Assembly: GCA_976551045.1 (NCBI GenBank)
Contig: CDPCPM010000160.1
Span: forward strand, 930,001 to 994,000
Length of the DNA: 64,000 nt
Reading direction: 5' to 3'
Origin: Glaucostegus cemiculus
Taxonomy: Eukaryota
Shown: piece after piece, positions 2,032-37,109 of the stretch
Position numbering within the stretch: the first letter of the stretch is position 1
Layout of the letters: each line of letters begins with the position of its first letter
Program-made: the position numbers and the translations under genes
Notes under the pieces: generated by a model
Databases searched by the model: none
What the model was told of the DNA's origin: nothing
Seen by the model: the letters and a program-made list of their open reading frames with translations, nothing else

Positions 2032-2083
2032 ATGGCAGGGCTGGCGCTCACCGCGTTCGCTCTTTGTCTCTTCGTATCTACGG
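2032..2083 (+). CDS. Gene 1 exon 1: signal peptide MAGLALTAFALCLFVST(G)
   Basis: ATG in GGAATGG context, hydrophobic core, phase-1 donor G|GTGAGC. Confidence 0.88.
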
Positions 2084-5000
2084 GTGAGCGTCACTCTCAT
2101 GGTTTATTGCTTGACAGTGAATGGCCACAGCAGCGGATTATTTTAGGAAGGCAGATTAATTTACAAGAAACGATCTAATTGTTGAACTGAGTACAGATTT
2201 TCAAGTCCATCTGCTTCATTCGCATTTCCCTCATATGAATTTCTCTTCCTCAGGTGAGTCTCAGTTTACCATCAACGTAGAACACAGCCAGATCAATCTG
2301 ACCGTCGGGGGAAATGTGTTATTTTCAGTGCGGCCGTCGGCCGAGGTCGCCAGTGGTAGCTGGACTTTCGATGGGAACCCAGTCGCCCAGTGGGTCGCTG
2401 AAAATGTGGTCTATACTGCTGTATACCAATCACGGGCTGAGGTATTCACCTCCAACAGGTCACTCCTGCTGCAGTCTGTGAACACCTCGGACAGCGGGCA
2501 ATACACTGTGAAGATGATTGCAAAGCGCGGCTCTTCAGCTTCAGCAACCATCACTCTGCGGGTTCTTGGTGAGTGAAACGTTGGTCTCGTTCAATTGTTT
2601 ATTCTCCGAGTGCTTTTTTCATTTTATTTTGGCGATGAGTGACTATAATTTCATCTTTCCTGTCCAAATCACTTGTTCTTGCACGACACGTCACTGACTT
2701 CTTGAAGGAGGTATTTTGTCCGAACTGGAAATTGTAACTAATGAATTGTATCGATCTGCCCTCCATTCATTTGGGATTCCTCCAGGGAAGGCATCGGCGG
2801 AGGATGCATGTGGGTGGTGGACCCGGCACCGTGTTTCTCTGCCTGAGCCTCCCTTTTACCTCACTCTTCCCTCGCATGATGACGCCAGAGTTTAGCAAAA
2901 CAAAAGGAACTGCACTTTGATGCAGGAGCCATTCCTGTGTCCCCAGTTTTCCCAAACATCCACTTGAACTTCCTTTCCCAAAACCGGATGAAATGACATT
3001 ACTGACGGTGGCATTTAGCCGCAATCACGTGAACCATTAGAACTATCCAGGACTTTCCCCCTACTGGTTCAATTGTCCTTTCGGCCCAAGCCGCATTCTC
3101 CCAAATATTTCGCTCAACGCTACCTCTCATCCCACCTCCTTCCCTCAGGTCAGTGTGCAGAAAACCACCAGTTCCCGGTGGTCTCCACACCAAGTCAGAT
3201 TTACATTCACACAGTGATCTGTGGTCACAGGAGCCCAGTATTTCGGCAGGTCCTAATCACGCCCTAATTGTCCTCCTTTTCTCCATTATGTCACATTAAT
3301 TCCGAGGTGTCCGTGTGTGTGAGGTTGCACTGATGTCGCTTTCTGGGATCTTGAGGGCAGTTTAACCTCTGAGCGTGGGTGAAGTGTTCAGGGACACCCG
3401 GGCACACCCTGTCATAAATGTCCATTACAGAAACTGCATGGGTTTCCACTCTTTGTTACCCTGAAAGATCCGTTGACAATCGACATACAGTATGTACTTC
3501 CTTACTGTATGTAATATTTCTGGCCTATTTCCCCGACACGTTGAGTGGGTAAACAGAAAATGGTTTAATCATAATTTCAACAAAAGAATATTCGGAGGCA
3601 GAAGATAATCCCGCGAGGAAATGTAAAATGCTTAATAACAGTACAGAGCGACAATAGTTATGAGGGATGTGTTTTGTTTCGCCTGAAGAAAATGTTTACC
3701 TGATCAAACGTAATTGTGTAATGGTCACATTTGAAAATGGTTTATGTTTCCGCTGGCAGTGGCGGGGTTAATTTTATTTGTCCCTCAGGTAAAGCGTGCC
3801 TATTGGCTGTCAGTTCGGTAGAGATGATCAAAAATTTCTTCAGCCACGCCCATGATTACCCGGCAGGTTCCTCAAAAACTTAAAATCTCAGGTTGCAGCC
3901 AGTGGGGTGGCCTACAACGCAGCCCGATTGTGCGCAGAAAACTCCCGTTACCAGTAGGGTAAAATGACCGCATATTTACCAATGACTGGACAGCAAAACA
4001 GTCCAGATTCTGCAAATCCGAAATTAAAAACAGGAAGTATTGTAACCATCAGCAGTCCAGACAATAACTGTGGAGAGAGAAAATGAAAAGAATGAAGGTT
4101 TCAGGTCGATGACATTTCATCGGATGATGATTTGGGAGGTCAATAATGTCCCAGCAGACCAGGGCTTTCCCACTGGCATTGGATCGGCGCTCCCGGATCC
4201 TCCTGAAATGGAAGATGTAGGCCCTATTGCAACAAACAGCGGAATTTCCTGGACTTAAGCTTTGCACCACCACCAGACAATGTGGATTTGGTTTAAAGTC
4301 TCCTGGTAGGTCTGGAATCGATTATTTGTCATAGAGGGGGTGATGCTCACTGAGTCACTGGAACCGACTCAAGAGCTCCGAAGCCTCAAAAAGCTTTGTC
4401 ATAAATTCTACTCCAATGACATTGGCCTGGTGCATCCACCAGTGACAAAACTTCACAAAGGACAACTGTTTTTATTCAAGTTGTTCTAATTCTCAAAGTA
4501 TATTTCTTTGGCTTTGAAATAACGGTGTGAAATAGAAATTTAAATGGCTCATAATTGCATGGCAACGCTACTGTTAACTATGGAGGGTGGGACTGTTATG
4601 TGGTTTGCATTTTAACTGCCTATCCCTCATTATCATATACTTTTCAGAAGTGCTTTCAGAATTCATTTCCAAATGTTCTTTAACAGATCTACAGGGGACC
4701 TTTCCGATTATTAAGTGGAATATTTGCATCCTTTGGACAAGATTGGGGGTCGCTCCTCTTTCTGCTTCAAGTGAAAAGGCAGAAAGAGCGATACCAGGCT
4801 TCATTGTGAATGCGGACCAGCGTTCATACATTTGTCCATACATGTATGGACAGTTGTCCATACATTTCAATATTACTCCGAAGCTAAACATTGGGGATTG
4901 AATGAGGACCCCTACCCTGCCCAGGCTTCTGAGTTGTGTTTGTTGTAACAGACTCGCGCAATCATGTGAGTTTCTTGTTCCACCAGCACAGAGTTTCTGA

Positions 5001-8000
5001 ACAGAGGCATGGAGTCATAGAACACAAAAACGAGCCTTCGGCTCACTTGGTGCTTGCCCGCCATCAAGGACCCATTTACACCAATCCTACACTGATCCCA
5101 TTATATTCCCCATATTCCCGCCAACTTCCTCCAGACTCCACTGCTCACCAACACTCTAGGGACAAGATGTTGTTGCCAATTAACCGAGTAATCTTTGCAG
5201 ACATTGAAACAATCTTTTTACAGGGCTGTCATAACCCAGCAATGAAAGAGATGGTTTATTGGTTGGAAGCGGGGAAATCTATTCCAGTTCTTTCATTTAA
5301 ACAGGTAGAAAGCTGGCTTCCCTCTTTCATCCGTGACGCGATACCGGACGAGGGAGAGCCCTGATGACGGGTCAAAGCTTTCAAAAGCCCTTCAACAATG
5401 AGATCCCCCACAGAAAGCCCTTGTTTCAGTTTTCTCACCCTTGCAATGATAACTTAAACTGTTACCTGTACTACCTCAATGCACTCTGTGCTACCCCAAT
5501 GTAACTGCACTGTGTAATGAATTGACCTGTACGATCTGTTTGTAAGACGAGTTTTCACTGTACCTCGGTAAAAGTGACAATAATAAACCAATAACAATAA
5601 CAATATCAATACCAATAAAGAGACTGGGACGTAATCAGAATTGTACAGACACGATTAGACCCCAACTGTGGTCCCGCCCTGTGGTGTCACTTCTTGATGT
5701 GTCAGTTCATTTATGAGGGTAGGAATGGTTGAGGGTTGGTTTCATGGCATTTAGATAGTTTATTTTTGGGAGAAGGGGTCGCACAAAGTTCCCTTCCATT
5801 CCTGGCTGCCGTATTGATGCAGAAGACCAAACCGATTCAGAGCGACGTAGCCTGCCCTACAATCAGAGGGATCGGTGTTGGGCGTTCCTGCCCTAACTGT
5901 TCGATACCAGGGATATGGTAGCATTGTGGTTAGGTTAGTGGAGTGGCAGCAGCGGCCTATATTGTTGGTCGAATCCATGTTCAAATCCCACCATTCCTCC
6001 GCAGAATGTAATATGAGCTTCAAAGAACAGTTGCAATCAGTAATGGTGGCCATGCAACTGCTGGAATACAGTAAACCCATCGAGTTCACGACAGACGCTT
6101 TAGGAAGGAGATTTTTTGCTGTTAGCCACTGTGGACAATAATGTGAGTCTAAACCACAGCAATGAGCATGGCACTTGTCTGCCCAGTAAAGTGGTTGGTC
6201 AATAAATGTTGGTTCAGTGAGGTGCGACTAATGTAGTAAAAATACCGATTTTTAGACAAAAATCGAATAATCCTGACAAAGAAACGGACTGCGATATTAC
6301 GCCTAAAAATTGACTTTCTGTCATATGGGCGTGGAAGGAGAACGGCAGTGTGGTATTGAGACTGAGGTCAGCCGTTAGTGCACTGAATGGCGGAGCATGT
6401 TCTAAGAGCCAAGGGCCCTTCACCTCCTCCTATGTCTCTATTTTTGTATCTGTGTTTTCTCCGACAATGAACACGTGAATAAAGATACTCAGCAGAAACA
6501 ACATTTATGTGCAGCAAGTACACAAACCTTGATATTCCCTTTGGAAAGCAAATGAACCTGTTGCGTTGATATAATTCATATTGCAGCAACGGGTTGCGTT
6601 CATACAGTTTCTGTAATGTCAGAAATTATTCTCTGGTGCCACAAGTGAAATTTGCCACCCAAGCAACGAGGATATGAGGCAGACGACGGATAGCTTGAGC
6701 TAAAGAGGCATGTTTAAATGTGAAGAAGTTGGAGAGGAGGTGGAGATGGAGGGAGTGGGTCAATGCGGAGGGAATACCAACAAGAGGCAGTTGACTACTG
6801 CTGCCAGCAGACATTAAAAACTAGATGCATGAAAGGAAAGAATAAAATCCTGTCGTCGATTGGCGAGTGTAGCTTTGAATCCCGAAGTGAAAATTGTCCA
6901 CGCAGAACTCACCGCACCCATGGTCCAGACTGGCGTGGTAATGGAAGGGGAAGAGGAAATCCTCAACGTGTGATAAACATAGAGAAGAAACCCGTTAGTA
7001 AGCTTTCACCCGAGTGACTGAAGATAGAACAGTGAATTCTTTGGGCATTACAGGTAAAAAGCATGTTCACCAGAGTGAGCAGGAAGTCACCAATTCCACT
7101 CCCAGTTGAACCTCTCAGACAGTTCACAAACCCATGATGGTCAGCCACACCACGATGCCCATTCCAAAGGCTGAGACCAGCAGTGTGAGGCCCGTTGTTT
7201 AAGGCTGGAATTTCATCTGTTCTCGGCATTTAGATCACACTTTGTCACAGAGTCATACCGCACAAAAGCAGACCACTCGGCCCAGCAATTATGTGCCGAT
7301 AACCAAGCACATAGTTACTTTGATCCTACAAGAATCCATTTTAATTCTCCCAGATTCCCAACAATTCCTCTTAGATTCTAGAACTCGCCTGAACAACAGG
7401 GAGGTTTTCAGCACCTCATTGTTGGTAGAATAGGAAAAATGGAGAAGGTAGTTGAGAAACAACAGAATTCTCCACTTCGAGGGGTATGGGTGTCTTGATG
7501 CATGAGGCACTGGGATATTAGCGTGGAGCTGCATAAGATTCAATGTTCCCTTCATTACAACAGCGATGACTATGTGTCGCTACAGCTGAACAGACCGTGG
7601 GTGGAATCACAGCTGGACTACTGAATATCGTACCTCTCTTCTATCTCTCTCCATCTCCTTCTCCCGCTCCCTCTCTCTCTCTCTCTTTCTCGCTTTCTCT
7701 CTTCCTCTCTCCGTCTCTCTCATCCTTCTCTGCAGAATGTTTTCCTGGAGTGGGTGTTCCCTGCTTCACTACCAAACAAGAGAAGAGGTAGAGTTTGCGT
7801 CAAGCTGCAGTTGTGGCTCAGCAACAGACGGAGCCCCGATATTGTAGAGGACAGACAGGTGACTGGATCTCAAACCCTCAAAGATACAAGGCGAAGGGTC
7901 TGTTCTGTCGAAGATAGGAAGCGCGTGTTTAACGGTTTTAGAAATTGTACGGCGTTGGTTCTCAGAGTCACCGTGGTGTGCTTGTGCATAAGTCAATGAA

Positions 8001-11000
8001 AGTCAATGTGCAATTTCTCCAAACAATTAGGATGTAGATATCTAGCCCAGCAGTAACTTATACAACACATAAATCCCCTGAACTTCATTGCAAGAGAGTT
8101 TGAGTATGAAAGATGTCGTCTTCCAATTATATCGATCCCTAATGAGACAGCACTTGGAACGTGGGTTGAACTACAAGTAGAGCAGGTTTTCAGACTAAGG
8201 ACTCACACTTTTAAGACGGATATGAGGAGTAATTTGAAAAATCGCTTCTTGGCCCTGGATTATTTACTATTTATATTAATGATACGGAGGAAGGGTGGTG
8301 TGTAGGGTACTGTTTGTTTCTCGTTAACACGAAAACGGTTGGAAGGCACGCTCTGATGATAACCAAATGTGAGTGGACAGAAACTTGCTCAAATGGAGTA
8401 CTGTGGAGAAGTGTGACATCATGCACTTCGGCAAGTGGAATCCACGTGCAGGTTATGAACTAACTGGAAAGAGGCTGAAAATGAGTGAAGTGCGACGGAT
8501 CTAAGTGGTGTTCTGGAAAGACTCGAAAGAGACCAGCAGGCAGCCGCAGCACGTAGTTAAGAAGGTAAACAGTTTATTGGTATTTATGGCAATGAGGTTT
8601 AGAAATAGGGAAGGTTGTTCTAGTTGTACAGTTGGTAAGGCCACATTTGGAATACTATGCATTGTTTTAGTCCACTTGTCGAAGAAAGGATACAATAGAA
8701 TTGAAAGGTCCAAAGGACAATCACCAGGCTTACTCCTGAGATCAGAAGGTTGCCCTATCAAGGAGGGGGGCGCAGTTAAGTTATTTATTCTATGGAGTGT
8801 GGAAGAATCAGGTTCTATTAGAGGATGGGAAACCTTTGGAATTCTCCTCCAAAAACCGCAACAGCAACAGAATTATACAGTTTATTCCAAACTACTCTTT
8901 GCAGACATTCAATCTAAAAGAGAATGGAGTGTTATGACGAGAGGACGGTAAATTGGTGTTGAGCCCAATACTGGATCACCCATGATCTATTGCATTGGTG
9001 GAGCGTGGCCACATGTGGCCTGTGCATCGAGCTTCCACTGACAAACGCTTCCACCTATTTTCTCTTTCTTGACTAATTATTTGTGAGCCATCTCCGTGCA
9101 CTGTTCCCCATGCGTTCTCCGTGTTCTCTCACTAATTTCGGATGATAGTTACTTCTTTTTATTCAGGTGACTCTTTGTTCCCCTTTCGCTGGTAGAAATA
9201 TCCAGTTTCTCAAAGTGACACAACACACAAACTGTCACCACGCTGTAGCATCTGCCACTTGTCTTGCATTCATAAAACAAAAAAAGAACAAAGATTCTCA
9301 TATACCAACTAAAATATTGCTTACTTGTGTCACGCTCCTCTGCATCATATAACACCAGTGATCGTTCCTCTCATGTATTTTGACAGAAGCCATTTCTAAG
9401 CCCACCATCTCAGCCAATAACACTCATCCCGTAGAGCACAACGACGCGGTTGCACTAATGTGCGATTCCACGGGGTCACCAACCTCATTTGAGTGGTTTC
9501 ATCGAAATGAAACAATTCGGACTGGTGATAGGACCGCCCTGACTCAGGGCAATAAAACCCTCGTCATATCAGGAGTGTTGCGGACTGATGGAGAATTTGT
9601 GTGCCGTGCGGCTGATGCTAAAAATCAACAGAGAAGTGACCCATATAATCTTAATGTTGCTTGTAAGTGTAAAAACAAAATTCGCAAGCACTCGTTAATT
9701 ATTACCAAACCTATGGACAGGACTAAGGGAAGTCATTCACTTTCTCTTTGTTTTATCTGATTCAGCTCTATGGTACGAAATTTGTAAAAACATACATGGC
9801 GTCATATTTACATGTTAACCCGTGCACGTCTGAGCAATGTAGGTTTGGTAATGCCTGGGGAAGGCGATCGATAGGACGATGATCATGGATCATGTTTCTT
9901 TGATTCCCTATCCATCACATTGCCCAGGACAGAGCTTCCTTAGAAACGCAAATTTAGGGTACGTCAAACAAAGCTTTGGATCAGCACCTCCAAGGAATTA
10001 ACGATTACATCAGGTTGTTGTTGAAACAGACAATTTTAAACATGGAAAACTTGCAATGCAAGGTTTACAAAGAATCAAATTGGAAAAATGGGATTAATTT
10101 TGAAGCAAAGCTTTGTTTTACATGAAATATTTAGGTTATAGGTTCTTTGCAAAATTAGTTTAGTTCAATTCCATGCGTTGCACAGCTGGTAAATTGCATG
10201 TTGTCTGGCATAATGGGGCGTGGGTGGCTCGTAGTTTGGTCGCACTTGGGAGTTTAGCGTCATTTTTGAACCAACCAATGCGTTTGTTTTAGATGGACCG
10301 GAATCTCTAATCGTATCCATCAGCCCAGAGCTTGATTTATATGCTGCGGGATCAAATGTAACTTTTTCTTGTTCCGCTGTTTCAAACCCTGCTGCTCAGT
10401 TTCAGTGGCATCGCGATAATTCAACACTTCAGAAAAGCGGGGATCAGCTGATCATTGCAGACCTGTCCTTGAATCACAGTGACAATTACACTTGCAAAGC
10501 TTTCAACTCGATAACGCAGAAATCCAGTGTGACAACAAGGCTCATTGTTGTTGTAGGTAGGTGAAGAAGAAGGCAAGGGATCCCTCTTTTCTAATGATGG
10601 CTTTTGTTGTGTTAGCTACAGGATTAGCAGTAGATGTAGAGGAAAGTGTGCGACATTGCGTTTGTTTGCCCTGTTGCTAAAATTTGCCCTTCTTGCTTTT
10701 AAATGGTGATTTCAGTTGTGAAGTTTTAGTTCATTTGCATTTTGTTGTATTTCTGCCTGTTCTCTTTGTAAACAATTGGACGGTCGTTCGGGAGGCAACT
10801 GATCTTCCCACTCAGACCTGAAGTTAAGAAGCAACTTACGTAGTTAATTTTATGAACTTTATTGTGGAGAAAATTGGATCTTAGCGCAAACGTTTGAAAC
10901 AGAATAGGGGCAGTGAATTCGTGCCAGGATTGTGTCCAATTCTGATAGGGCCACGTCTGGATCAGTGTGGACATTTATGGTCTCTGCACAACAGGAAGAA

Positions 11001-14000
11001 TCTGCCACCACTGGAGAAGATGCAAGAGTCTGACACGGCCGCTGTCTGCACCAGAAATTTATCACTCCAAGAATATCGGGCTGTAGTTGCTTTCTTTGAA
11101 ACGGCACAGTCAATACAGCTGCATCAAACTATGTACTGTCTGGTCGTTGACGAAATCGTGCCACCTGTGGCCCTGATCTATGCGGCATCTTGTGAACCTT
11201 TTCTCACCCTCTGCAAAGCCTCCACAGCCTCACTGCAATGGGTGACCGGAACAACACACAATACTTGAAATATGTCCCAAATAAAGTTTCACACAACTGC
11301 AACATGTCTTCCGACTTTTATATTAAATGCCCCGATCAACGAAACCAGGTATTTCGTACGTCTTCTTTATACCATCCTATCCACCTGCGTTTTCCCTGTC
11401 AGGGAATTATGGACTTACAAAGCAATGTCCCTCTGAACATCAATGCTTCTCATGGCACTGTCATTAACTGTGTATTCTCCCTTAGCATTTGACCTCCCAA
11501 CGTGCAATTCCTCACACTCCACCGGATGAAATTCCATCTGTCATTTCTCTGCCCATATCTGTAACTGATTTATATTTTGCCTTATCCTTGACAACCTTCT
11601 TCACAGTTCACAATTCGAGAATTTGTTTAGTCACCGAAGCTACTGATCAGCCCATCTACATTTTCGTCCAAGTCACTTGTACACCATGGGTTCCAATACT
11701 GATCCCTGCGGAAAACCACTGGTCACAGATCTCCAGCCAGAATAAAGCCCCGCCACCACTCTCCTCTGTCTTCTATGGCCAAGCAAATTTTGAATCGATG
11801 CTACCAACCCTGGCGGAGTCCGTGAGCATTAATCTTCTGGATCAGCCTACCTTGTCAAATTCCTTACTAAAATCCATGTAGAACACATCCACTGCCCTAC
11901 CCTCATCAATGATCTTCGAGACAACCTGAAAGAACTTAATCTTTTAACTTCGGAAGATTATTACCAGCCCTGCACAAAGCCTTGCTAACTGTCCGCAAAC
12001 AACCAATGCTTTTTTCAAATGCCAGTAAAATATATGCCCAAAATTCTTCTCCAATAGCTTACCTCCCACTGATCCGAGGCTCACTGGTGTATCATTTCTC
12101 CTACTGTCCCTTACTACCCTTTTCAAACAAAGGAACAACTTTGCTCACTCTCCAGCCCTCTGGGACCTTGTCTGTGGTGAGAGGGGACATGAAAGTATAA
12201 GTCAGCCCCCAGCGGTCTCCACTCTCGCCTGTCTCAATAACCTGGATGGATCCCATCAGGCCCTGGGGGCATCCGCCTGATTTTCTTCGAGAGCCACAAC
12301 ACCACCTCATTGGCCACATCAACATGTCCTAGTAACTTCTCATACCCCTACCTGATCTCACTGTCCTCCACGTCCTTCTCCTGATGCCAAGTGCTCATGT
12401 AGTACCTCACACACTTCCTCTAGCTGCAGGCACAGATTCACTGCTTTGTCCAGAAGTTGTCCTATCCTCTCCTGTGCTACTTTATTCTTGATGCATGTAC
12501 AAAGGGACAAAGAATTTTCCTTAATCCCATTCTGAAAAGGATATTTCGTGTTGTTTTGGGCTTCCTAGTTCCCCGTTTGTGTTATTTCTTGCTTTCCTTT
12601 TATTGCTTAAGGGTCCTGTCTGATTTCCGAGGCTTTTTGACTGTTGCAGGCTGTTTTACGACAGTTAAGGACGCAATGTCCAAGGAATATGTTCAGTGTG
12701 CTTCGCACACTGGTGATGCAGCTTAGGTTTGACGTGTTATTGGCCACTCCAGGCACGCAGCGTCCTCGGGACTTCAGGGTGATAGCGGCTGAAGCACAGT
12801 ACGGCAGACGTTGGCTGAAGACGAGATCATGCAAACCGGTAGAAACTTGGCTCAGCATCCTTCATATTTAACATAGAAGCGTATAGCACAGGAACGGGCC
12901 GTTCTGCCCACGATGTTGTGCCGAACTAAATACGCGGGGAAAGAAAAGCTGAGTGTCAAAGGCAGTGAATCAGTTCTGTAATATCATAGACCGAGATAAT
13001 TCGGGCCGAATTCTTCCCAAATAACGACCATCAAAGGACTTTGCCTCGAAGAAACATTGCAGAAAATGGATGTTTTTAAATCAGTGTTTAGGAATAAATA
13101 TATGAAATAGTGATTGCAGCTGAAATCAGTTACCTGATAAACATAAATGCTCTTTAAAATTTGGAAAAACACCATTTCTGCTGGAGATGGGGATTCCAGT
13201 CCCGTGGAGAACCCGCGGAACCGGATCCCAAGTGAATCCGACCACACAGCCCGTGTTGATCCGAAACTACCCCTGGATGCGACCGAGATTCTGGGTTTAG
13301 AACAGGAAGTCGAATGCGGTCGCCGCTAATCAGCGGGTTCCAGACTTCCGCGGCCCCCAACGCGCGCGGACCAGAGTCACAACCGCCTGGAGCTGCGGGA
13401 AATACCTCGGCAACCGTCTGTTGCAAATCACCCCCACAAGGGATGCACGCTTCTGGCCAATGTGTTGATATCATCTGAGCCATGTTCAGAGTGTAGGACA
13501 ACGTATGTTACATGGCACCAGCTTTGAGCTCTCAGAACTGCAAAGCTCAGGAAGCTCTGTTAAGGTCTTGTGTTTCAAAATCCCTGCCTATGGCCTCTTA
13601 TCCGTGTGCGCAGATCAGCAGTGACTTCCGCAGCTGCTGCAACAAGTCTTCGGCCACTGCCACAACGTTGATTGAAGAGCAAGCTCACAGATAACCCAAA
13701 TGCGGCACACTGGTACAAGACTGGAGTCAGGATACTTCCTCAGGACTGGACACAGGCAACACTGGAAGGAATCTTGCCTCGGAGATCTGAGTAGTAATCC
13801 CAACACAAACTGAATCTTCAAGCAGGACTAGAGAACGCAAGACTGTTCTAGAGTAGACCACGCTAAGCAGCTAGGAGCCAAAGTAAACCCAAAGGTTGAC
13901 CAATACTCTGGCAACTAGTGCTACAGAAACCCAGGTACTTATGCTCGGCCCCTGATGGGGCTCAGGTGCGTGTCATTGTGCAATAAGTCCAGCATGGAAT

Positions 14001-26000: not shown

Positions 26001-29000
26001 GATAGATAACAAATTGCCGGCATGAACTTTGCAAGCCGAAAGAGTCTGTTTCCATTCTCTGTGACTCTGTATCTCTCGGACTGGACTGATGCAGTCTTGA
26101 GGATTTTGTCACAATGGACTTTAACCTGTGTATTTTTATTTGTTTTAAAGTCTCCTTATGAGAAAAGAAGAGACGGAGTATAATGCCAAAGGTGATGAAC
26201 TGCAAATCCCCGGTCAGTTGTCTTTAATGAGAATTCTCACCTCTGGGGAGGGTGAGGAGTGGAGTTGTGACAACGAATCCAGGGATGAGGAGCTTCAATG
26301 GCGGAATCTCTGGGATCGTTCACCTTGTGTTTAACATACGGAAGGATGTATATAGTGAGAGAGAGGGTGGGTGAGAGGAAAGCAGAGCAGAGGAGAGGAG
26401 AGCAGAGAAGAGCAGAGGAGAGCAGAGAGAGGAGCGAGAGGGGAGAAATGTGAGAAAGAAGGGAAGAGAGAAATGATAGAGTGGAGAGAAGGGAAGCAAA
26501 GAGAGCGGGGGAGAGAGAGAGCAGTTGTTCAAAGTGACGGACCGGACAACACGGCATACTGGCAAAAGAGCAAAGTTATAAAACTGTAATTTTAAGCAAA
26601 GACAGCTCCTAAAAACTGATTCTGTGTTCTGTTCTGTGCATCCGCAGCTGTCTTTGTTGTTCTTACAAATAACTGATTGATTATCGTGTTACAAGAATTT
26701 ACTTTTAACCAGTACAGAGTTGGCTTCCTTGATCACAGACTTTACCTTTCCCAGCGGTCAAACATTACCTTGTCAATAAATCGCAAGCACATCAGCAACA
26801 GGTGGTGTTCCGCCATTCGGCCCCTCGAGCACCCTCTCATACTCAATGATGTTATCGTTGCTCCGTGATCCCCAAACCCTTGACTCACATTTCGCCGAAT
26901 ACACCTCCGTCTATGCTGGGTTAGAACACATAATGTCTGATCCCCCACAGCTCCTTAGAATTTTCTCCACATCTCCGGTTGAAGATAGAGACCCCATAAT
27001 TCCGAACCTTGGTCCCCAGCTGTACAATTTCCCCAGAAGGGGAACTATCTTCTAGACAGCTGTATTACTCTGGTGTGATTGATATCAGATCAAACTGAAA
27101 TTTAAAATTACAATGCTAACACAGACCATCAGACAAATAGGAGAATATGCAGGACACTCGGCCTCTATAAACTAACCCGGCATTCGAATCAATGCAGCTG
27201 ATCAATGTTGGCCTCAGCGCCAGTTCTGTGCCACTTCGCCATAACCATCTAGTCCTCGATCGTTCAAATATTTATCAATCTCCACCTTAAATTTATCCAG
27301 TGATCCGGCATCCACCACGCTCGGAAATAGAATCCAAGACATTCACTGCACTCTGAGAGAAGACATTTCCCTTTACCCACGTTTTAAATAACCGGGCCTT
27401 TATATTGTAACTGTGCTGGCTTGTTCATGAGTCTCCCTCTGGTAGAAACATCTTAGCATCGGACATAGAACAGGCGCTTCGGCCCACCCTGTCTGTGCAG
27501 AACATGTGCCAAATTAAACTGATTCCATCTGCCTGCACATGATCCACATCCCTCCATTCCCTGACTGTTTATATCTCTTGGACACCAATATGGTGTCGCT
27601 TCCATCACCAGCCCTGACCACTCCTTCCAGTCACCCACCACTCTGTGATACAAACTGAGCCCACAATCTCCTTTGAACTTTCCCCCTCTGCCCAAGGATG
27701 TGCCCTCTTGAATCCAGAGTGTTCCCTGTCAAGCAGACTTAGGATCTTATATGATGAAATAAGAAAACCTCCATTCTTCTGAACACCAATGCATACAAAC
27801 CCAAACTCTCCAGGTTATGGTGAGGCTCAGGCTGAGGATTAGGGTTCCGGTTAGGTTTAGGGTCAGGGCCATGCATTGTGTAGGGTTCCGGTTGTCTTAA
27901 TAGAAAAACCCACATCCCAGGAATGAGCCTGGTGAATCTGCTTTGGGCCTCCTCCAATGCTACTATATCGGGGGGTTTAGGTAAGGGGAGGAAATCTGTG
28001 AACAGTGCTCCAGATGTGACCTCTCCAGAATCCTGTACAACTGTAACAGGACCCTCCAATTCATCAATTCCTTTGCAGTAATGGCCAAGGTGCCGGTGAC
28101 AACCATGTCTTGGTGAACAGGGGCCTTGCTGATGGGAGGAGACTGCGTTAAAAGCTGTAACTCCATTTCTCCTTTACTTGTATTTACAGAACCCGTGTCT
28201 AGTGTCACTGTAGCACGCAACAATTTAAGTCCCGTGGAAATCAACGATACAGTTGTACTCATTTGTGACGCGCAGGGCACTATTCAGAGACGAACATGGT
28301 TGAAAAATAACCAACCCATCCAGGAAAATGACAGAATATTTACATCTTCAGATAAAGCAGATCTGACCATAACCCGTGTTAACAGAACTGACACAGGGAC
28401 ATATAACTGTACCGTAAGCAATGATTACAATAGCGGCCGTGCAGCAATCTACATGCAAGTTAACTGTAAGTACACAGACTGCTCAAAACATTAGCTTGCG
28501 TTTAATATTATTCATTACAGAATCCACATACCTTCTCGACTTCTGTTTGTAGATGGACCGGAAAACGTTATAATTCTGCCGCAGGGACCAGTTGAGGCAG
28601 ATATTGTCTCAAGTCTTACATTAACTTGTTCTGCCCAGTCAGTCCCCAGAGGTGAATATAAATGGTACAATCGGACAAATCATCTACAGACAGGGCAGCA
28701 GTACACCATCGAGCCAGGAAGGTCGGTTGACAGTGGGACTTATACTTGTGAGGTTTATAACAACGTAACCATGAAACGCAGCAGCCACACCGTCGAAGTA
28801 CTCGCACGGAGTAAGTACATTTTCTCTCTGTATTTGACTGAGATTGTCTTCATAAAGATCTCAGCAGGTGTATTTTCAGAACCTCCCGGTCTCCTCCTCT
28901 GTCTGACTTGCTAATCAGAGGGACAATGATTCGGTGTTCTTGGAAACTTTAAATGTGGAAAGAATTATCAGCCAAGACAAAGGGTTTAAAGGGATTCACT

Positions 29001-32000: not shown

Positions 32001-35000
32001 CTGCGTAGCTGTCAGAATTGTATTCCCAGAACAATTACCCAATACAATTCCCAGAATTGTATTGGGTAATTTGCAAACTACTATTTTCTGCCATTTATTT
32101 TCTGATGTTTAAAGCTCAACAATGAGCTCGAGGTACCACAAACAATCAAAATTGCACGGATATTGACTCTGTTCACTTAGTTCCTTTCCAATGCATCACG
32201 TCTCCTTATTTCCTCAATTCCATTTTCAGTTCGCAATGTTCACACTCCCGGAGGTTTGTCAGCTGGGGCGATAGCCGGGATTGTGATTGGCGTTGTTGCT
32301 GGAATTGCCATTGTGGGTGCATTCGCTGCCTGGTTTATCAAGAAATATGCAAGCAGGTATATATGTTTCATTAAATCTTTACCTTCATGTTGATTATACT
32401 CCCTAAGACCTGACGTCCTGAAGTAACCAATGATTTGTTGCAGAACGATTTGCGTGTACTCTATCCTGTCAGCCGACGGTGTGCGTATTTCTCCCGAACC
32501 TTCCATACTTGTTCGATTTACAGCTGCTCTTTAAATCTGCTCCTCTGTTTGACGGTTAGTCATTCAACCTCACTGCCGTGCAGTAGCAATCAAGCAATCA
32601 AGCACATTCTTCCATGACAGAAGGGGCATTCGGCCCATTTCTTTCCCCATTATTTGTGAATGGACTGCTTCACACATACACGGCAGGGGGACAGCAGCAA
32701 ACACAGGTCGCTGGATCTGCACGTCAGCACTGACTGCTATTCCACTATGCTGAAATTGTTCGACGCAGAGCCCTGTATTATTAATCCGACTTCTCTTGTT
32801 GAAATGCCACCATCCGAACAAGAGAAACTGAAGCTGGAGAATATCACAGCCCCTCGAGCCAATTATGCTCTACAATTTGATTGTTGATTTGATCTTGGCC
32901 TCAGTTCAACATATCCCCCATTCTCAAAAGCCCTTCACTCCGCATTGCACCAAGGATTTTTCTCTCTCGGCCGTGAGTATGTTCAATGCTTCCAAATCCA
33001 CAGAATGACAGAAGCCAAAGATTCACCGCCATTCATTACTCCTCCACACATTCTGATACAGGTGAAACCTTCTTCTGAAACATGCCCCCATGTTCAGGAG
33101 AAGTTCACTGTGGGAAACAACAACTTACCCGTCCATACCTCCTCAAAAAGAGGATTCAGGTTCAGAGACGGTGAGAGCTAACTTGAGCTGACTGAAGAAA
33201 TCTGTCCAATGACCATGAATAGCAAAATCATCCCATAGTCCAAGCTGATTCACACCTATCCATCTAGAAGGCGAGAGTGCGTCACTATCTTGTGTTATCT
33301 CCACGAATCTCAGAGACCATATGTGGAAAGATAAACGTATCGACTTAATATTCTTTCTTCAGAAATATCGTTATCTGAACATAAATAGGCCGAATATTAC
33401 AATGGGAATGTGATTGTTTCTACTTGCGGTTTGATTGACACCTCTGTGCCCAGAGCAGATAATTTGATATCTCTGTTTCAACGTCCTGTTCCCTACTGTC
33501 AAGGTGCAACAATAAATGTGATTTCTGTCGGAATTCCCGTTCACTGAATTAGTCTATTGACCAATCTTTTATTTTCAGAATTCATATTTTGATCCGTGTT
33601 TGCTTACTTAGGATGAAAGTTGCGGAGATACATCACGGGAGAGGAAAACCAGGAGTAAACAGTGAGTAGAAAGCGTTTTCACAGCTGTCAGTATAAGACG
33701 TTGGTTGGGCCACACTTGGAATATTGTGTGCTGTTCTGTTCACCGCAGTATGGAACGTATGTGGTTGAGTGGGGAAGAGATTCGCCAGGATGTGGCCTGG
33801 AATGGAGGACTTTAGTTCCAAGGGGAGGTTATACGCTGGGATAGTTGTCCGTGGAGTACAGGTGGCTGAAGCTAACCTTTCCAGTTTCACATAATCATGA
33901 GGTATATACTCACTGACCTTTCCGAACGTAGATGAACGTGGATCAAGAGTAAATATGTGAGAAGGAAAATACTGAAAGGAGAAAAGAGAGGCACGTTTGT
34001 CATACAAACTGTGGTGGGTGATTGGAACTGGCTGCCAGAGGAGGTGGTTGAAATAGGTATAATCACAGCGTTCACAAAGCATTTTCATAGGTGTACGTAT
34101 AGGAAAGGTAAAGAGGGATAGGATCCAAATGCAGGAACTTAGGATCAAAGTGGATGCGCATTTCTGTCGGCATGGTTTCGTCGGGCCAAATGGCCTGTTT
34201 CGCGGCTGTAATACTCTATCACTTCATGTGACAGGAAATACAAAGGATGTTGCTGCGCAGATCCGTGGACCTCACAGAGATACTCGTATAATTCTTAGAG
34301 TCAAAACTGTGAAAGAGGCAGTCGGAATCATGAGGTGTCCTCGGATGGCTTAAACGGCTGCTGAGACGGTTATATTCCAGTGAGAAGAAGTGGCGTCAGG
34401 GGAGGTGACTGAGGGGGAATATTTCTGTATAGAGTTGCTACTGTCTGGAAAGTTGCTCCATTTTTCAGTTTGGTCGCCCGTCAGTCTTCAAGGTTGCAAG
34501 ACTCTGAAGCGGAATTGAGTAGCGGTTGAGTTTGCCCGGTGAGGTCCATCTTCTGCATAACTAAAATGTACAATGCTTGACCTGGCTGTGCACTGAACTG
34601 GATCGGTGCCAACTTCTCAAGGATAACAAGGATCTGCAAATCCTGCCACCGAGAAGGAGAAGAACAGGATCAGACCTTAAGTTGGTCAAATCTACAGGGC
34701 TTGTGCGAAAGGGGCGGAACTTATGAAATTGGTGTGATGCGCTTCCAATGTATCCAACAGGCGTTCCTCCGTAGGTGAAAACTAATATTGAATCTGTTTG
34801 CTCTGATAAATAAACGTGTTGTATTCCCACAGACACCTTGGCTACGGATGTTGCAGACTCGGCACAGACGTATGAAAATATACCAAGGAATCAAAAGGTT
34901 AGTACAAGTGCATCATGATGATGTTCCAATCAACATCATTTTTATATACATAACGTAGAATGTTGATGTAGAACATAAAAATAATTCCTCCTACAGCAGT

Positions 35001-35969
35001 TGTGGATTGGGGTCAGCAGACTGGGGTCCTTAGGAATATACATCTATAAAACTTGCATTCTTCCTTTTCATGTTCGAATTCACTCTCGTACCTCAGAACA
35101 ATCTTTAACACACGTTTGGATAAGGAACACGCAGGAATAGGAAGCCTTAAGAGGGCTCTGGGCCAAATGCGGGCAGTCAGGACATGATCGTTGGCTCCTT
35201 GGTCAGGATGGACCAGTTGGGCCGAATGACCCGTCTCCATGCAGTAGGATTGTATCGCTCCGTGACTCTATGAATCGTTGGGAATGGTCATGATCAGGTG
35301 TAGCTCGCCAACTGACTTCACTATCGAACTATCGTAACACTGGACTCTCTAATAATTTGGTTAATGACACTTTGTGGGTCCACATCTGTGAGCGAATTGC
35401 GAAACAAACTCTATCTGTGTGTAGACTAGGTTTTCGGTACAAAGTTGTTTAAAGCAGCAATGGATGTGAACACTGCTTCCTTTAGGTTTCATTGGGAGGA
35501 GAGATAATGACATTCTCTGTCTTGTCGGTTGATTCATTCGGTATTTTATTACTTTCCCATCAACAGAGTAGCGCTCACCCGACCGATGAAAACTCCACTT
35601 ACATGGTAAGGGAATTGTGTTTTATTCTTTTGAGGTAAATACTTCTATTTTCACCGTTTCGAACCAAACCCAAACGTAAACCACTCTATCACGGGAACCC
35701 CCTTTAACACATGGCAAGTTCACAGCTGATCCTATCTCCCACGTACACTTTCCGGCCCGATCCCCATGTACGCCGATTCACGCACTGTCCGAGAGCCTAT
35801 CGGTCTCAGCGTGGAACACTCTCAACGTCTTCTCTATGATCTTATTATACACGTCTGTCAATGTCTGCTTCTGCTAATATTTGTTTGCGAATCATAACGA
35901 CCTGTTCATGTTCAACAGGGACTGGTGTTGGAAGATCGATCACTTTACAGCGACCTAAGGAGGAATTAG
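2032..35969 (+). CDS. Gene 1: CEACAM-like type I membrane receptor, L-N-(A-B)x4-TM-cytoplasmic ITAM, 949 aa; join(2032..2083,2254..2568,9387..9662,10293..10556,16324..16599,18404..18667,20360..20635,22201..22461,28190..28465,28553..28810,32230..32356,33612..33661,34833..34897,35567..35605,35919..35969)
   Basis: All introns GT-AG and phase-compatible; joined frame open from ATG to TAG (2850 nt). Cys-less IgV domain, alternating EPVSKP- and YGP-type IgC2 exons, and a TM GLSAGAIAGIVIGVVA nearly identical to the CEACAM1 TM start. Orthology to a named CEACAM cannot be assigned. Confidence 0.9.
2254..2568 (+). CDS. Gene 1 exon 2: IgV-like N domain without cysteines
   Basis: GESQFTINVEHSQ...SW...RAEVFTSNRSLLLQSVNTSDSGQYTV...LRVL; DxGxY motif present and no Cys, a CEACAM N-domain hallmark; acceptor TTCCTCAG, donor G|GTGAGT. 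Confidence 0.93.
5455..5620 (+). mobile_element. Non-LTR retroposon 3' tail (Rex1/RTE-like) with (CAATAA/CCAATA)n end
   Basis: TTTTCACTGTACCTCGGTA...GTGACAATAATAAACCAATA; related copy at 52200-52460; family assignment from recall. Confidence 0.6.
7636..7730. repeat. (CT)n-rich low-complexity tract
   Basis: Pyrimidine-rich CT repeats. Confidence 0.85.
8060..9020 (+). mobile_element. Decayed CR1-clade LINE, RT/3' region
   Basis: Remnants of CR1 ORF2 motifs (KC.xMHFG; TTGGTAAGGCCACATTTGGAATAC = LVRPHLEY). Confidence 0.8.
9387..9662 (+). CDS. Gene 1 exon 3: IgC2 domain A1
   Basis: EAISKPTISANNTHPVEHNDAVALMC...W...RTDGEFVC...DPYNLNVA; 276 nt, phase 1/1. Confidence 0.93.
10293..10556 (+). CDS. 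Gene 1 exon 4: IgC2 domain B1 (absent from the ORF track)
   Basis: YGPESLIVSISPELDLYAAGSNVTFSCSAVSNPAAQFQW...SDNYTCKAFNSITQKSS; 264 nt; TTTTAG acceptor and G|GTAGGT donor. Confidence 0.93.
11130..12640 (-). mobile_element. Decayed CR1-clade LINE ORF2
   Basis: Minus-strand VPEGWRVSKVVPLFEKG, PVSL.SVGGKLLEK and MDFSKEFDKV remnants with frameshifts. Confidence 0.85.
12954..14790. repeat. Two diverged direct copies of a ~720-bp unit (about 12954-13667 and 14067-14790) separated by ~400 bp
   Basis: Both start TGTCAAAGGCAGTGAATCA and end near CTGCAACAAGTCTTC; collinear throughout with many substitutions. Confidence 0.92.
15015..15156 (-). mobile_element. tRNA-derived SINE (V-SINE/HE1-like)
   Basis: Minus strand CCTCACAGCTCCAGAGACCCGGGTTCGATCCTGACC (B box) followed by the GGTTCCTCCCA...TGTAAACTGCC core. 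Confidence 0.75.
16324..16599 (+). CDS. Gene 1 exon 5: IgC2 domain A2
   Basis: EPVSKPVITSNDTNPVEYNDTVSLTC...YLW...RSDEEFTC...DPFLLTVR; 276 nt. Confidence 0.93.
18404..18667 (+). CDS. Gene 1 exon 6: IgC2 domain B2
   Basis: YGPENLTTSISPDL...FSCSAVSNPAPAFQW...DTGSYTCEAFNNVT; 264 nt. Confidence 0.93.
20360..20635 (+). CDS. Gene 1 exon 7: IgC2 domain A3
   Basis: EPVSEPNIKDNATILIEYNDTVKLTC...YLW...RTDGPFTC...FDLDVY; 276 nt. Confidence 0.93.
20770..21075 (+). mobile_element. Ancient SINE-like fragment (related fragments near 17500-17800 and 31050-31130)
   Basis: TATATGTGACTCCAG...GGCAATTGGAGATG...GGCACTGCCAGTG resembles elasmobranch SINE 3' parts; from recall. Confidence 0.45.
22201..22461 (+). 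CDS. Gene 1 exon 8: IgC2 domain B3
   Basis: (C)GPDHPKITTNPDSPPYLAGSTFTLTCSAESRP...W...TGNYTCQAFN; 261 nt. Confidence 0.93.
23810..24045 (+). mobile_element. CR1 LINE 3' end
   Basis: TTCTTTACCCAGAGAGTGGTTGGGGCATGCAATGCGCTGCCTG (FFTQRVVGA.NALP) followed by CR1 3' UTR and TTCTATG tail. Confidence 0.85.
24700..25060 (+). mobile_element. Decayed LINE ORF2 C-terminal fragment
   Basis: CATTCATTCCACCACCTGCGCCAGTGGCTGCAGTGTGCACCATC resembles the HSLHHRRTVAAVCTI motif of elasmobranch LINEs; from recall. Confidence 0.55.
26355..26522. repeat. Purine-rich (GA/GAGCA)n low-complexity tract
   Basis: Direct reading. Confidence 0.85.
27120..28110 (-). mobile_element. Nested decayed CR1 fragments
   Basis: LLQLYRILERSHLEHC.Q..SPYL, DIVALEEAQSRFTRLIPGM and two CR1 3' ends. 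Confidence 0.8.
28190..28465 (+). CDS. Gene 1 exon 9: IgC2 domain A4
   Basis: EPVSSVTVARNNLSPVEINDTVVLIC...TWLKNNQPI...RTDTGTYNC; 276 nt. Confidence 0.93.
28553..28810 (+). CDS. Gene 1 exon 10: IgC2 domain B4
   Basis: YGPENVIILPQGPV...LTCSAQSVPRGEYKW...DSGTYTCEVYNNVT; 258 nt after an 87-bp intron; donor A|GTAAGT. Confidence 0.92.
32230..32356 (+). CDS. Gene 1 exon 11: stalk and transmembrane helix
   Basis: IRNVHTPGGLSAGAIAGIVIGVVAGIAIVGAFAAWFIKKYAS(R); basic stop-transfer residues; phase 1/2. Confidence 0.92.
33612..33661 (+). CDS. Gene 1 exon 12: cytoplasmic 1 (R)MKVAEIHHGRGKPGVN
   Basis: TTAG acceptor, A|GTGAGT donor; phase 2/1 bridges the TM exon and the next exon; same phases as the gene 2 counterpart. 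Confidence 0.75.
33685..34220 (+). mobile_element. CR1 LINE 3' fragment
   Basis: YKTLVGPHLEYCVLFCSPQY motif and CR1 3' UTR. Confidence 0.85.
34833..34897 (+). CDS. Gene 1 exon 13: cytoplasmic 2 NTLATDVADSAQTYENIPRNQK
   Basis: CCCACAG acceptor, AAG|GTTAGT donor; same length as and similar to gene 2 exon 47370-47434. Confidence 0.88.
35567..35605 (+). CDS. Gene 1 exon 14: cytoplasmic 3 SSAHPTDENSTYM (first ITAM tyrosine)
   Basis: CAACAG acceptor, ATG|GTAAGG donor; AACTCCACTTACATG identical in gene 2. Confidence 0.9.
35919..35969 (+). CDS. Gene 1 exon 15 coding part: GLVLEDRSLYSDLRRN* (completes the ITAM)
   Basis: TTCAACAG acceptor; TAG at 35967-35969; near-identical exon in gene 2. Confidence 0.9.
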   Translation, partial: GLVLEDRSLYSDLRRN

Positions 35970-37109
35970 CGCAGAAAGTTTGTGAAGCGATACAAAATGT
36001 TGTTTAAAAAGGAAAAAATTGCATTCTTATTTCTGTCTTTGAAACATGGACTATAGAATGGACAGAAACCTGCCACAAGTTCCCTGCGACTATTATATGA
36101 CAGACATCATACAGTGTGGGCTGGAGACAGGTGCAGAGAGACAATGAACATTAGTGGAACAACTTTACTGAACCGGTCGCTGTGTAAAACTTACAACTTG
36201 ACAGGAAATATGCACTTTCAGGACACCTGAGAAAGTTACGGAGCTTCCGTCGTGTTTACCTCCATCAGTTAAAACTCCACATACGTTCCGACTGAGAACC
36301 AGAACACCACACCTGTGATGCAGAGGGATCGGTTGGTTTATGAATCGCGAGGATAACAAGACAACAAACCAAGGAAGTTTCCGCATCATAATGCCTCTAT
36401 CATGTTTCCATTACAACCGTTCTCCGTGTCACCCTCGGTTCTTCCAGTCTGTCTCGCTGTCATATCCCCTTCCAACCCTCGCCTGGTTGCCACTCACATT
36501 TCCCCCACATCATTCCCGTACAAAGTGGATCCTCTCCCTTCTTGATGCAGATCATAGACTGGTCCGTCCTTGACCGCTTCCGCCGTCCACTTCCATAAAC
36601 GAAACGAAGCGTCGAATTCAAATTGTTGGCGAACCAGACTCTGTGTTTCCATTGGCCAGGATCCTCTTAGAGCCGCTCATGTGTTGCCGCTACGCAGTCA
36701 TTCCGGGTATAATGACCCCATATTTTCTGTGTTTCCGAGGAAAAGATCGCACTCTCAGCGAAATCTGATGCAGCGTGAGTGATAATTTATTCAACACAAC
36801 ATCAACAGATATTTTACTGCACAGTGTCCAGCCTCGCCTGTCTGGGCGCAGTGTTCTGACGTCTTTCTCGACAGCAATGAGAACTTGCTTTCATTACTCA
36901 GAACCATTGGATGCTGGAACTTCCATCCTTTCTGTGTCCACCTTCCGACAAATGAGAAGACTGGAAATTCTGCTGCCATCCTCACTTCACCCTCAATGGG
37001 AGACACAGAGAAAAATGCGAATGTGAATGTCGCGTTTCCGTAAACGAAACTGGAAAGCACAACAACGAGTTCGCATGCCACAGGAAGTAAAGAGTTATTA
37101 ATATAAGAA

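Follow-up and report, generated by a model that had tools for sequence, protein, structure and literature searches.

An intact CEACAM gene with an eight-IgC stalk and its own ITAM in a tandem cluster of the cartilaginous fish Glaucostegus cemiculus

Background

[quoted passage not shown] The question is raised by a gene at positions 2032-35969 of a 64,000-nucleotide stretch of DNA from Glaucostegus cemiculus (assembly GCA_976551045.1, contig CDPCPM010000160.1, positions 930,001 to 994,000 of the forward strand). The whole stretch is called the window and the contig, which also carries a cluster of related genes, C160; positions are in window numbering unless C160 is stated. A first-pass annotation, made from the letters alone, had read the locus as a long-stalk activating CEACAM, possibly a pathogen-capture receptor, in a probable cartilaginous fish.

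Paired CEACAMs, with immunoreceptor tyrosine-based inhibitory motifs (ITIM) or ITAMs, have been described in mammals, Xenopus and reptiles (PMC2832619, PMC5112662, PMC13278318), and ITAMs have been shown for teleost CEACAMs (PMC3628338, PMC4079198). For cartilaginous fish there is a skate expressed sequence tag report, and one abstract claims an ITAM architecture from cartilaginous fish to humans (PMC3628338, PMC4079198). No ITAM/ITIM-paired CEACAM cluster of a shark or ray was found in the main texts, taken without figures and supplements, and no eight-IgC ITAM CEACAM was found in the literature, where the figures or supplements of PMC3628338, PMC13278318 and PMC5112662 may show longer ITAM members. 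The gene described here is intact; its paired-receptor design is a known one, and its eight-IgC stalk is unusually long.

Results

The 15 exons within 2032-35969, all on the plus strand, joined in frame to encode 949 residues, with an AG acceptor and a GT donor at all 14 introns. The order of leader, N domain, four A-B pairs, transmembrane (TM) segment and four tail exons bearing the ITAM, as assembled in the first-pass annotation, was borne out. The leader exon of the joined-exon model (2032-2083), containing the ATG start and a signal peptide, ended in phase 1. The N exon (2254-2568) encoded a cysteine-free IgV-like domain, the predicted ligand-binding tip, and was identified by Pfam, the exon model, solved-sequence matches and AlphaFold2. 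The stalk consisted of eight IgC2-like exons, A1 (9387-9662), B1 (10293-10556), A2 (16324-16599), B2 (18404-18667), A3 (20360-20635), B3 (22201-22461), A4 (28190-28465) and B4 (28553-28810), each placed by Pfam and the exon model, with further support from matches to CEA (B1 and A2) and from splice joints in relatives (A2 through B4). All nine Ig exons matched Pfam Ig families and were phase 1-1 with one domain per exon, and the protein had 35 N-glycosylation sequons. The TM exon (32230-32356), which rests on the exon model and its sequence and ends in phase 2, encoded an uncharged helix with three GxxxG-type spacings; no charged residue was present in the 21-residue TM peak, as had been stated.

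The tail was divided among exons C1 (33612-33661, 50 nucleotides (nt); conserved in paralogs), C2 (34833-34897), C3 (35567-35605), which ends in the first ITAM tyrosine at a phase-0 split, and C4 (35919-35969), which supplies the remainder of the ITAM and the stop codon. All four follow from the exon model, with additional evidence from joints in relatives for C2 and C3 and from paralog tails for C4. The motif was YMGL-x7-YSDL, starting at residue 932 and comprising Tyr932 and Tyr943, and thus the exact YxxL-x7-YxxL that had been claimed. It also agrees with the YxxL/I-x6-8-YxxL/I definition of ITAM-type CEACAM1-related paired receptors, in which a phase-0 intron cuts the first YxxL. It is interrupted by a phase-0 intron after YM and exists only when 35605 joins 35919. 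An ITAM pattern arose in 746 of 200,000 shuffles of the 76-residue tail. Acidic residues were located at -4 and -5 of Tyr932, one position off from the -3 of the (D/E)xxY consensus (PMC2832619). The first-pass description of the tail was correct in the ITAM and had overlooked a third tyrosine, Tyr912, in the sequence YENI of exon C2, 20 residues ahead of the ITAM; this YxN motif is a predicted Grb2-type SH2 site. With an uncharged TM helix and an ITAM in its own tail, the protein would need no signaling adaptor, as had been proposed. Most paralogs have a splice donor after the ITAM; at 35960-35969 this donor was lost and the stop codon follows directly, a tail end common to seven of the 38 ITAM-tail copies described below; the contigs of relatives continue to a further exon near 36310.

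The joining of the tail exons, which the first-pass annotation had put forward as a check, was compared with contigs of other species, about 89% identical, from four runs guessed to be RNA, the joint evidence coming from one study. Among the joints listed, 35605>35919 and 34897>35567 were each present with GT..AG borders in two of the four runs, and in two of the four a single contig carried B4, TM, C2, C3 and C4. The stalk joints listed were A2>B2 (16599>18404, GT..AG) in three of the four runs, A3>B3 (20635>22202) in one and A4>B4 (28465>28553, GT..AG) in one; N>A1, A1>B1, B1>A2, B2>A3, TM>C1 and C1>C2 were absent among the joints listed, and C1 had no alignment in these contigs. The leader joined N near 2088>2266, with 10 other letters in between. 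The comparison shows that the ITAM junction is used by family members. The proposed joining was found in contigs that are not of the focal gene, and they speak neither for expression of the focal gene nor for a nine-domain transcript. No RNA run containing the focal stretch was among those listed; the five listed runs (shares of 0.05-0.08) were all guessed RNA of other organisms, with no bearing on expression. Most aligned contigs were attracted by intronic high-copy repeats resembling long and short interspersed elements (LINE/SINE) at 4900-6130, 23300-24400 and 11000-15200.

Membership in the CEACAM family was supported by the stalk, for which CEA/CEACAM1 gave the best solved matches. Two of its eight exons, A2 and B1, were compared with solved proteins. 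In CEA, the A domains, all three of them, were matched by A2 (E 6e-47) and the B domains were not, while the best solved match of B1 was CEA, in three stretches (E 1e-34); both were ahead of other Ig proteins, and HEPACAM2 matches were weak (E 1e-4). A sawfish relative, P0002, matched CEA at E 5e-89, with the first non-CEACAM at E 1e-18. The N domain was less discriminating. Its best solved sequence matches were CEACAM1/6, with CD48 (E 1.7e-6) close behind CEACAM1 (E 8e-7). The AlphaFold2 model had a V-set fold with a predicted local distance difference test score (pLDDT) of 96, and in the fold search V-set domains tied at Z 14-16 without separating families; the best was TIGIT (Z 16.1, root mean square deviation 1.6, 99 aligned) and no CEACAM chain was present among the 50 fold matches listed. 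NCBIfam gave no match for either of two proteins. Loss of the B-F disulfide in the N domain is a mark of the CEACAM family, and the focal N exon encoded no cysteine. Arg60 and Asp79 were present; an Arg-Asp salt-bridge pair is described for CEACAM N domains (PMC2832619).

The closest named relatives were from the sawfish Pristis pectinata, with N domains 71% identical, which confirmed the assignment to a cartilaginous fish, most likely a ray. In a tree of cartilaginous-fish N domains (59 rows, 105 columns), the cluster and the sawfish grouped with support of 95/86 inside a ray clade (98/93). N domains clustered by lineage, inhibitory and ITAM genes falling together both in Mobula and in the focal cluster. 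Two narrower identities were rejected: that of a CEACAM20 ortholog, on account of the full 315-nt N exon and eight IgC domains, and that of a GPI (glycosylphosphatidylinositol)-anchored CEACAM5 type, on account of a TM exon with a donor and four tail exons. A catshark CEACAM5-like gene neighbors lipeb and tmem145 (bioRxiv 10.64898/2026.03.04.709523). The synteny markers of the family are LIPE, CXCL17, TMEM145, TOMM40 and BCL3. In the present assembly LIPE was on a different contig, 10-49 kb from its start, and the cluster ended 23 kb before the end of C160, with no contig overlap seen; TMEM145/GPR180 matches were on C95 and C104 and Porin_3 matches on C10, C176 and C578. The synteny-marker search gave no match to PLAC8/cornifelin, and no CXCL17-like exon was recognized in the last 23 kb of C160 or the first 20 kb of C414. 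Single-exon genes for G protein-coupled receptors (GPCRs) flanking the cluster were dropped as FFAR markers, having no solved relative at E 1e-15.

The focal gene is not the sole example of its kind. All 51 N-exon matches in the genome were on C160, between 485 and 2,004 kb, and 38 ITAM-type last exons were present in C160 230,001-2,086,208, with the motif intact across the intron in 34. The locus is a tandem cluster of 1.5 Mb made up of ITAM-tail copies, with a single inhibitory-type gene at its end. Most copies belonged to a repeated unit of two genes arranged tail to tail, N-(AB)4 on the plus strand and N-(AB)3 on the minus strand; one such unit is contained in the window. An automated check found six of the 38 ITAM-tail models open throughout, five with nine domains, including the focal gene, and one with seven. 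The gene of the first-pass annotation is intact, and it belongs to a set of 38 ITAM-tail copies of which the majority are damaged. From the TM exon onward the focal unit and the next unit had 99.3% identity over 38 kb, which dropped to about 80% at the N exon, a pattern that is the mark of recent unequal crossing-over.

The inhibitory-type gene (C160:2003699-2062760), the last in the cluster, was found by a tail search with the horn-shark protein P0006. It had the N-(AB)4-TM layout of the focal gene, with all exons open and fully joinable, and its tail exons of 53, 57 and 44 nt and a last exon encoded TEYAAV, IIYTNP and TDYATL. TEYAAV fits the TxYxxV/I consensus of the immunoreceptor tyrosine-based switch motif, or ITSM, while TDYATL and IIYTNP fit neither the ITIM nor the ITSM consensus strictly. 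Around the ITSM, 12 residues were identical to the horn shark. Mammalian and reptile CEACAM1 typically have a first tail exon of 53 nt, and the 50-nt focal C1 had the flanks and phases of the 53-nt exon of the inhibitory gene. No further copy of the inhibitory last exon turned up (one exact match and three at chance level; in the tail search, one of 13 weak matches).

Between the focal and inhibitory genes the stalk exons were 73-92% identical and the N domains 64%. Inhibitory-type proteins of the zebra shark (951 residues, N-(AB)4) and horn shark (N3-(AB)4) had the same stalk. Because the cluster partner and the shark inhibitory proteins share it, the long stalk reflects how the CEACAM1-like inhibitory gene is laid out in these fishes, and the earlier comparison of the stalk with GPI-anchored CEACAM5 was not upheld. 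By their sequences the ITAM genes look like duplicates of the inhibitory gene with a swapped tail; tail-swapped duplicates of inhibitory CEACAM1 have been described in mammals (PMC2832619).

The closest counterpart of the inhibitory gene was an ITAM-tail gene at C160:1642367-1687296, which was 98.3% identical to it over 22.7 kb, encoded an identical N protein and had two broken extra exons that would need skipping. Five of the 31 other open N exons encoded domains at least 80% identical to the inhibitory N domain (80-100%), three of them on the opposite strand; this 1,642-kb gene was one and the other four were 80-83% alike. On sequence grounds these five, and best the 1,642-kb gene, are the candidates for exact decoys, not the focal gene. 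A CEACAM3-type exact decoy was rejected for the focal gene (64% N identity, same strand, eight IgC domains versus 0-2), and the decoy function that the first-pass annotation had drawn from CEACAM3 is doubtful for this copy, since paired N domains in Xenopus are 80-93% alike.

Selection was measured across copies, and the signal is that of the family rather than of the focal copy alone. The 32 open N exons, less one divergent exon and exact duplicates, left 26, which were analyzed with the GY (Goldman-Yang) codon model on a fixed tree. The ratio of nonsynonymous to synonymous substitution rates (dN/dS) was 2.07 for the 39 codons of the C-C'' and F-G regions (GFCC'C''; 2dlnL, twice the log-likelihood difference, 21.1 against a ratio of 1) and 0.62 for the remaining 66 N codons (2dlnL 13.4). 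None of 100 random 39-codon sets reached 2.07 (maximum 1.53). Strand-only sets gave 1.46 for GFCC'C'' and 0.68 for ABED, and alternate residues of the front sheet 2.43 and 0.66. The pooled stalk of seven open genes had a dN/dS of 0.33-0.95, below 1 in all eight exons. The 27 different open N exons were about 80% identical in nucleotides. Diversifying selection on the GFCC'C'' region favors a microbial ligand.

Of 186 proteins surveyed, 72 had a focal-type N domain. An ITAM pattern was present in 19 of these and the family ITAM stood at the tail end in 17, of which 15 were named, from 11 shark and ray species. The only survey model ending in N-(AB)4-TM-ITAM was that of the electric ray Narcine (XP_069798522.1), 48% identical over 948 residues; this model is a fusion of two genes and also contains an inhibitory-type gene. 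Because the family ITAM was not seen at the end of the printed tail of Callorhinchus P0127, no claim is made for chimaeras. Automated RefSeq models of sharks and rays, among them those of Pristis (P0002/P0077), Carcharodon (P0009), Narcine (XP_069798522.1), Stegostoma (XP_048379807.1) and Heterodontus (P0006), had N, A and B domains as in the focal protein and tails that were either YxN+ITAM, as in the focal gene, or TEYA/TDYA inhibitory. They are named merely "CEACAM-like" or "uncharacterized", with no motif annotation seen.

The second gene of the unit, a convergent paralog on the minus strand (44060-61289), was traced by exon matches through three A-B pairs, the first B being frameshifted, to TM and four tail exons. 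The tail had YENF, and its ITAM was intact; the leader and N exon of this gene were just outside the window. The frameshift in its first B exon, near 59,070, recurred in at least four other copies and is for that reason real, not an error of assembly; skipping this exon would preserve the reading frame. Elsewhere in the cluster, an inverted B exon (C160:873376-873644) was present inside a seven-domain ITAM gene that was open in all other respects.

Several other genes were located nearby. A divergent N-A-TM gene (C160:548981-557500), additional to the 38 copies, had its own split ITAM, YMGL-x7-YDQL, and may be an ancient member that has been conserved, comparable to the N+IgC ITAM orthologs of Xenopus. 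An N-(AB)3-TM gene (C160:569500-606700) that ends right after the TM segment is a tail-less CEACAM5-like member, with conserved counterparts in models of catshark, white shark, stingray and manta; it was rejected as the inhibitory partner, since it ends there, like its shark and ray relatives. Tandem N-only exons (C160:484881-493600) matched proteins of sharks and rays that combine 3-5 N domains with a pair of hydrophobic stretches at the C terminus. A V-C2 gene (C160:403293-413420) with extra V-domain cysteines and the ITIM IVYSAI in its last exon belongs perhaps to another family, CD2/SLAM- or HEPACAM-like, and a similar C2 exon was present at the start of the contig. The flanks of the cluster (C160 1-180000 and 230000-455000) contained V-set genes resembling CD22/SIGLEC and a series of single-exon genes for rhodopsin-type GPCRs, with Ty3/gypsy and LINE pieces interspersed.

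Discussion

The focal tail closely resembles that of the ITAM-bearing CEACAM1-related receptors of marsupials (opossum and wallaby; PMC2832619), with four cytoplasmic exons, a YxN in exon 2, a canonical YxxL-x7-YxxL/I split by a phase-0 intron, a first tail exon homologous to that of CEACAM1 and a location in a cluster with an ITIM/ITSM CEACAM1. This likeness was counted in favor of the reading given below. The focal gene differs from the marsupial type in its eight IgC domains (0-6 in mammalian members other than PSG), an acidic residue at -4 rather than -3, about 38 ITAM copies for one inhibitory gene, and its occurrence in a cartilaginous fish. The paired Ceacams of Xenopus (PMC5112662), like the focal cluster, combine ITIM and ITAM genes in opposite orientations with a diversified CC'C''FG face, and the group 1 N domains are said there to be closest to fish CEACAMs. 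The Xenopus pairs share 80-93% of N, whereas the focal and inhibitory genes share 64% and other copies 80-100%. In reptile ITAM CEACAM1-like proteins (PMC13278318) an extra tyrosine precedes the ITAM by 17-21 residues, compared with 20 here, and the stalk of a long lizard CEACAM1 was lengthened by A-B duplication, as in the focal gene. The reptile ITAM tails have three exons rather than four, and the long reptile stalks, of up to 16 IgC domains, are on inhibitory CEACAM1, in contrast to the focal ITAM protein.

The combination of an IgC stalk with an ITAM, which the first-pass annotation had singled out, is real and not unprecedented, since CEACAM20 and dog CEACAM23 are known; only the length of eight IgC domains goes beyond what was found in print. 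CEACAM20, dog CEACAM23 and dog CEACAM28 (PMC2110893) are TM CEACAMs with an IgC stalk and an ITAM, as here, and CEACAM28 is paired with CEACAM1. CEACAM20, which is mammal-specific, has a truncated N-A1-B1-A2-B2 layout with four IgC domains, and CEACAM23 is N-A1-B-A2 with three. Human CEACAM3 and CEACAM4 (PMC7026191, PMC9418913) have their own ITAM, four tail exons and no adaptor, as in the focal gene; they differ in having a single N domain, which in CEACAM3 is 88% like that of CEACAM1, and the CEACAM3 motif ends in YxxM.

The focal protein is probably a microbe-sensing, activating member of a paired CEACAM family. After duplication of an ancestral inhibitory N-(AB)4 gene, a YxN+ITAM cassette would have taken the place of the last tail exons; the two-gene unit would then have been multiplied by unequal crossing-over, and pathogen pressure would have diversified the tip domains. 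By analogy with human CEACAM3 (PMC7026191, PMC9418913), a multivalent microbial adhesin would cluster the N tip, leading Src-family kinases to phosphorylate Tyr932 and Tyr943, which would recruit Syk/ZAP70 and other SH2 proteins. Tyr912 would recruit Grb2. The output, on the same analogy, would be uptake, an oxidative burst or cytokine/NF-kB responses. Because its N domain is only 64% like that of the inhibitory gene, the focal copy is not an exact decoy of that gene, and it would recognize its own ligand variant rather than the exact ligand of the present inhibitory gene.

Several observations weigh against this interpretation, 1) at least one exon or splice site was broken in 32 of the 38 ITAM-tail models in the automated check, so that much of the cluster may be debris, 2) 13 of the 17 public shark and ray ITAM proteins have 0-2 IgC domains, as do the described decoys (PMC13278318), compared with eight here, 3) the focal and inhibitory genes are on the same strand with N domains 64% identical, whereas described pairs are 80-93% identical and in opposite orientation, 4) the contigs with splice joints, of about 89% identity, come from a single study and are only guessed to be RNA, and none covers all nine domains, 5) the GFCC'C'' region was drawn after column variability had been seen, the contrast falling to 1.46 versus 0.68 with strands only, gene conversion violates the single-tree assumption, dS was also raised in N, at 0.25 against 0.05-0.15 in the stalk, and many N exons of the set belong to damaged genes, and 6) large phosphatases are displaced at tight contacts (PMC9418913), and by analogy a tall receptor may be poor at excluding phosphatases such as PTPRJ and at triggering uptake. 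On the other hand, a coat of C4BP on bacteria is a greater obstacle to the short CEACAM3 than to the long CEACAM1 (PMC13498321), and in the same way height may help the receptor to reach its target.

CEACAM20 signals via Syk, and the focal protein could instead be an adhesion-and-alarm receptor of that kind on epithelium or leukocytes, with the stalk spanning the glycocalyx, the N domain binding host CEACAMs and the ITAM switching on inflammatory genes rather than engulfment. We consider this unlikely. IgC domains support CEACAM-CEACAM adhesion, in which short CEACAM3 takes no part (PMC7026191), CEACAM20 itself combines four IgC domains with an ITAM (PMC2110893) and is located in mouse gut epithelium (PMC8358819), and the 35 sequons and GxxxG-rich TM segment would fit a dimerizing glycocalyx protein. 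However, a fixed host ligand would conserve the GFCC'C'' face, where dN/dS exceeded 1, and the focal N exon is full-length, unlike that of CEACAM20, which is reported to be absent outside mammals.

Somewhat less probable still is that the stalk is a passenger of recent unequal crossing-over, with short exon-skipped forms as the working receptors and the nine-domain ITAM protein rare or unimportant. Every Ig exon, being phase 1-1, is skippable, CEACAM splice forms with variable numbers of IgC domains are commonly described, and the damage in the 32 broken models is mostly in stalk exons while the tails stay intact; the near identity of the focal unit to its neighbor from the TM exon on and the few IgC domains of most public ITAM proteins point the same way. 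Nevertheless, all eight stalk exons are open in five nine-domain ITAM genes, dN/dS is below 1 in every one of the eight, and an N-(AB)4-TM-ITAM gene is also found in Narcine.

An error in kind, either a non-CEACAM Ig protein (CD2/SLAM or HEPACAM), as the near-equal CD48 match of the N domain alone might suggest, or an assembly artifact multiplying one gene, as might be read from the long near-identical segmental repeats of C160, is very improbable. The location of LIPE on another contig, with no synteny shown, would also count for such an error, but the A and B exons single out CEA, HEPACAM2 matches are weak, the open N exons include 27 different ones that are too far apart, with a nucleotide identity of about 80%, to be haplotype copies, and shared lesions recur across copies.

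Conclusions

The cluster extends paired inhibitory and activating CEACAMs to sharks and rays with gene-level evidence. The marsupial-type tail was taken by the authors of PMC2832619 as independently acquired; its presence here suggests that the YxN+ITAM cassette is an ancestral feature and did not originate in marsupials. With its eight IgC domains the ITAM CEACAM departs from a stated rule, that of short decoys, and offers a natural test of ectodomain length against ITAM triggering. According to PMC13278318, humans and mice are the only hosts with known CEACAM-binding pathogens, and the 27 different N domains are ready probes for the CEACAM-binding microbes of cartilaginous fishes.

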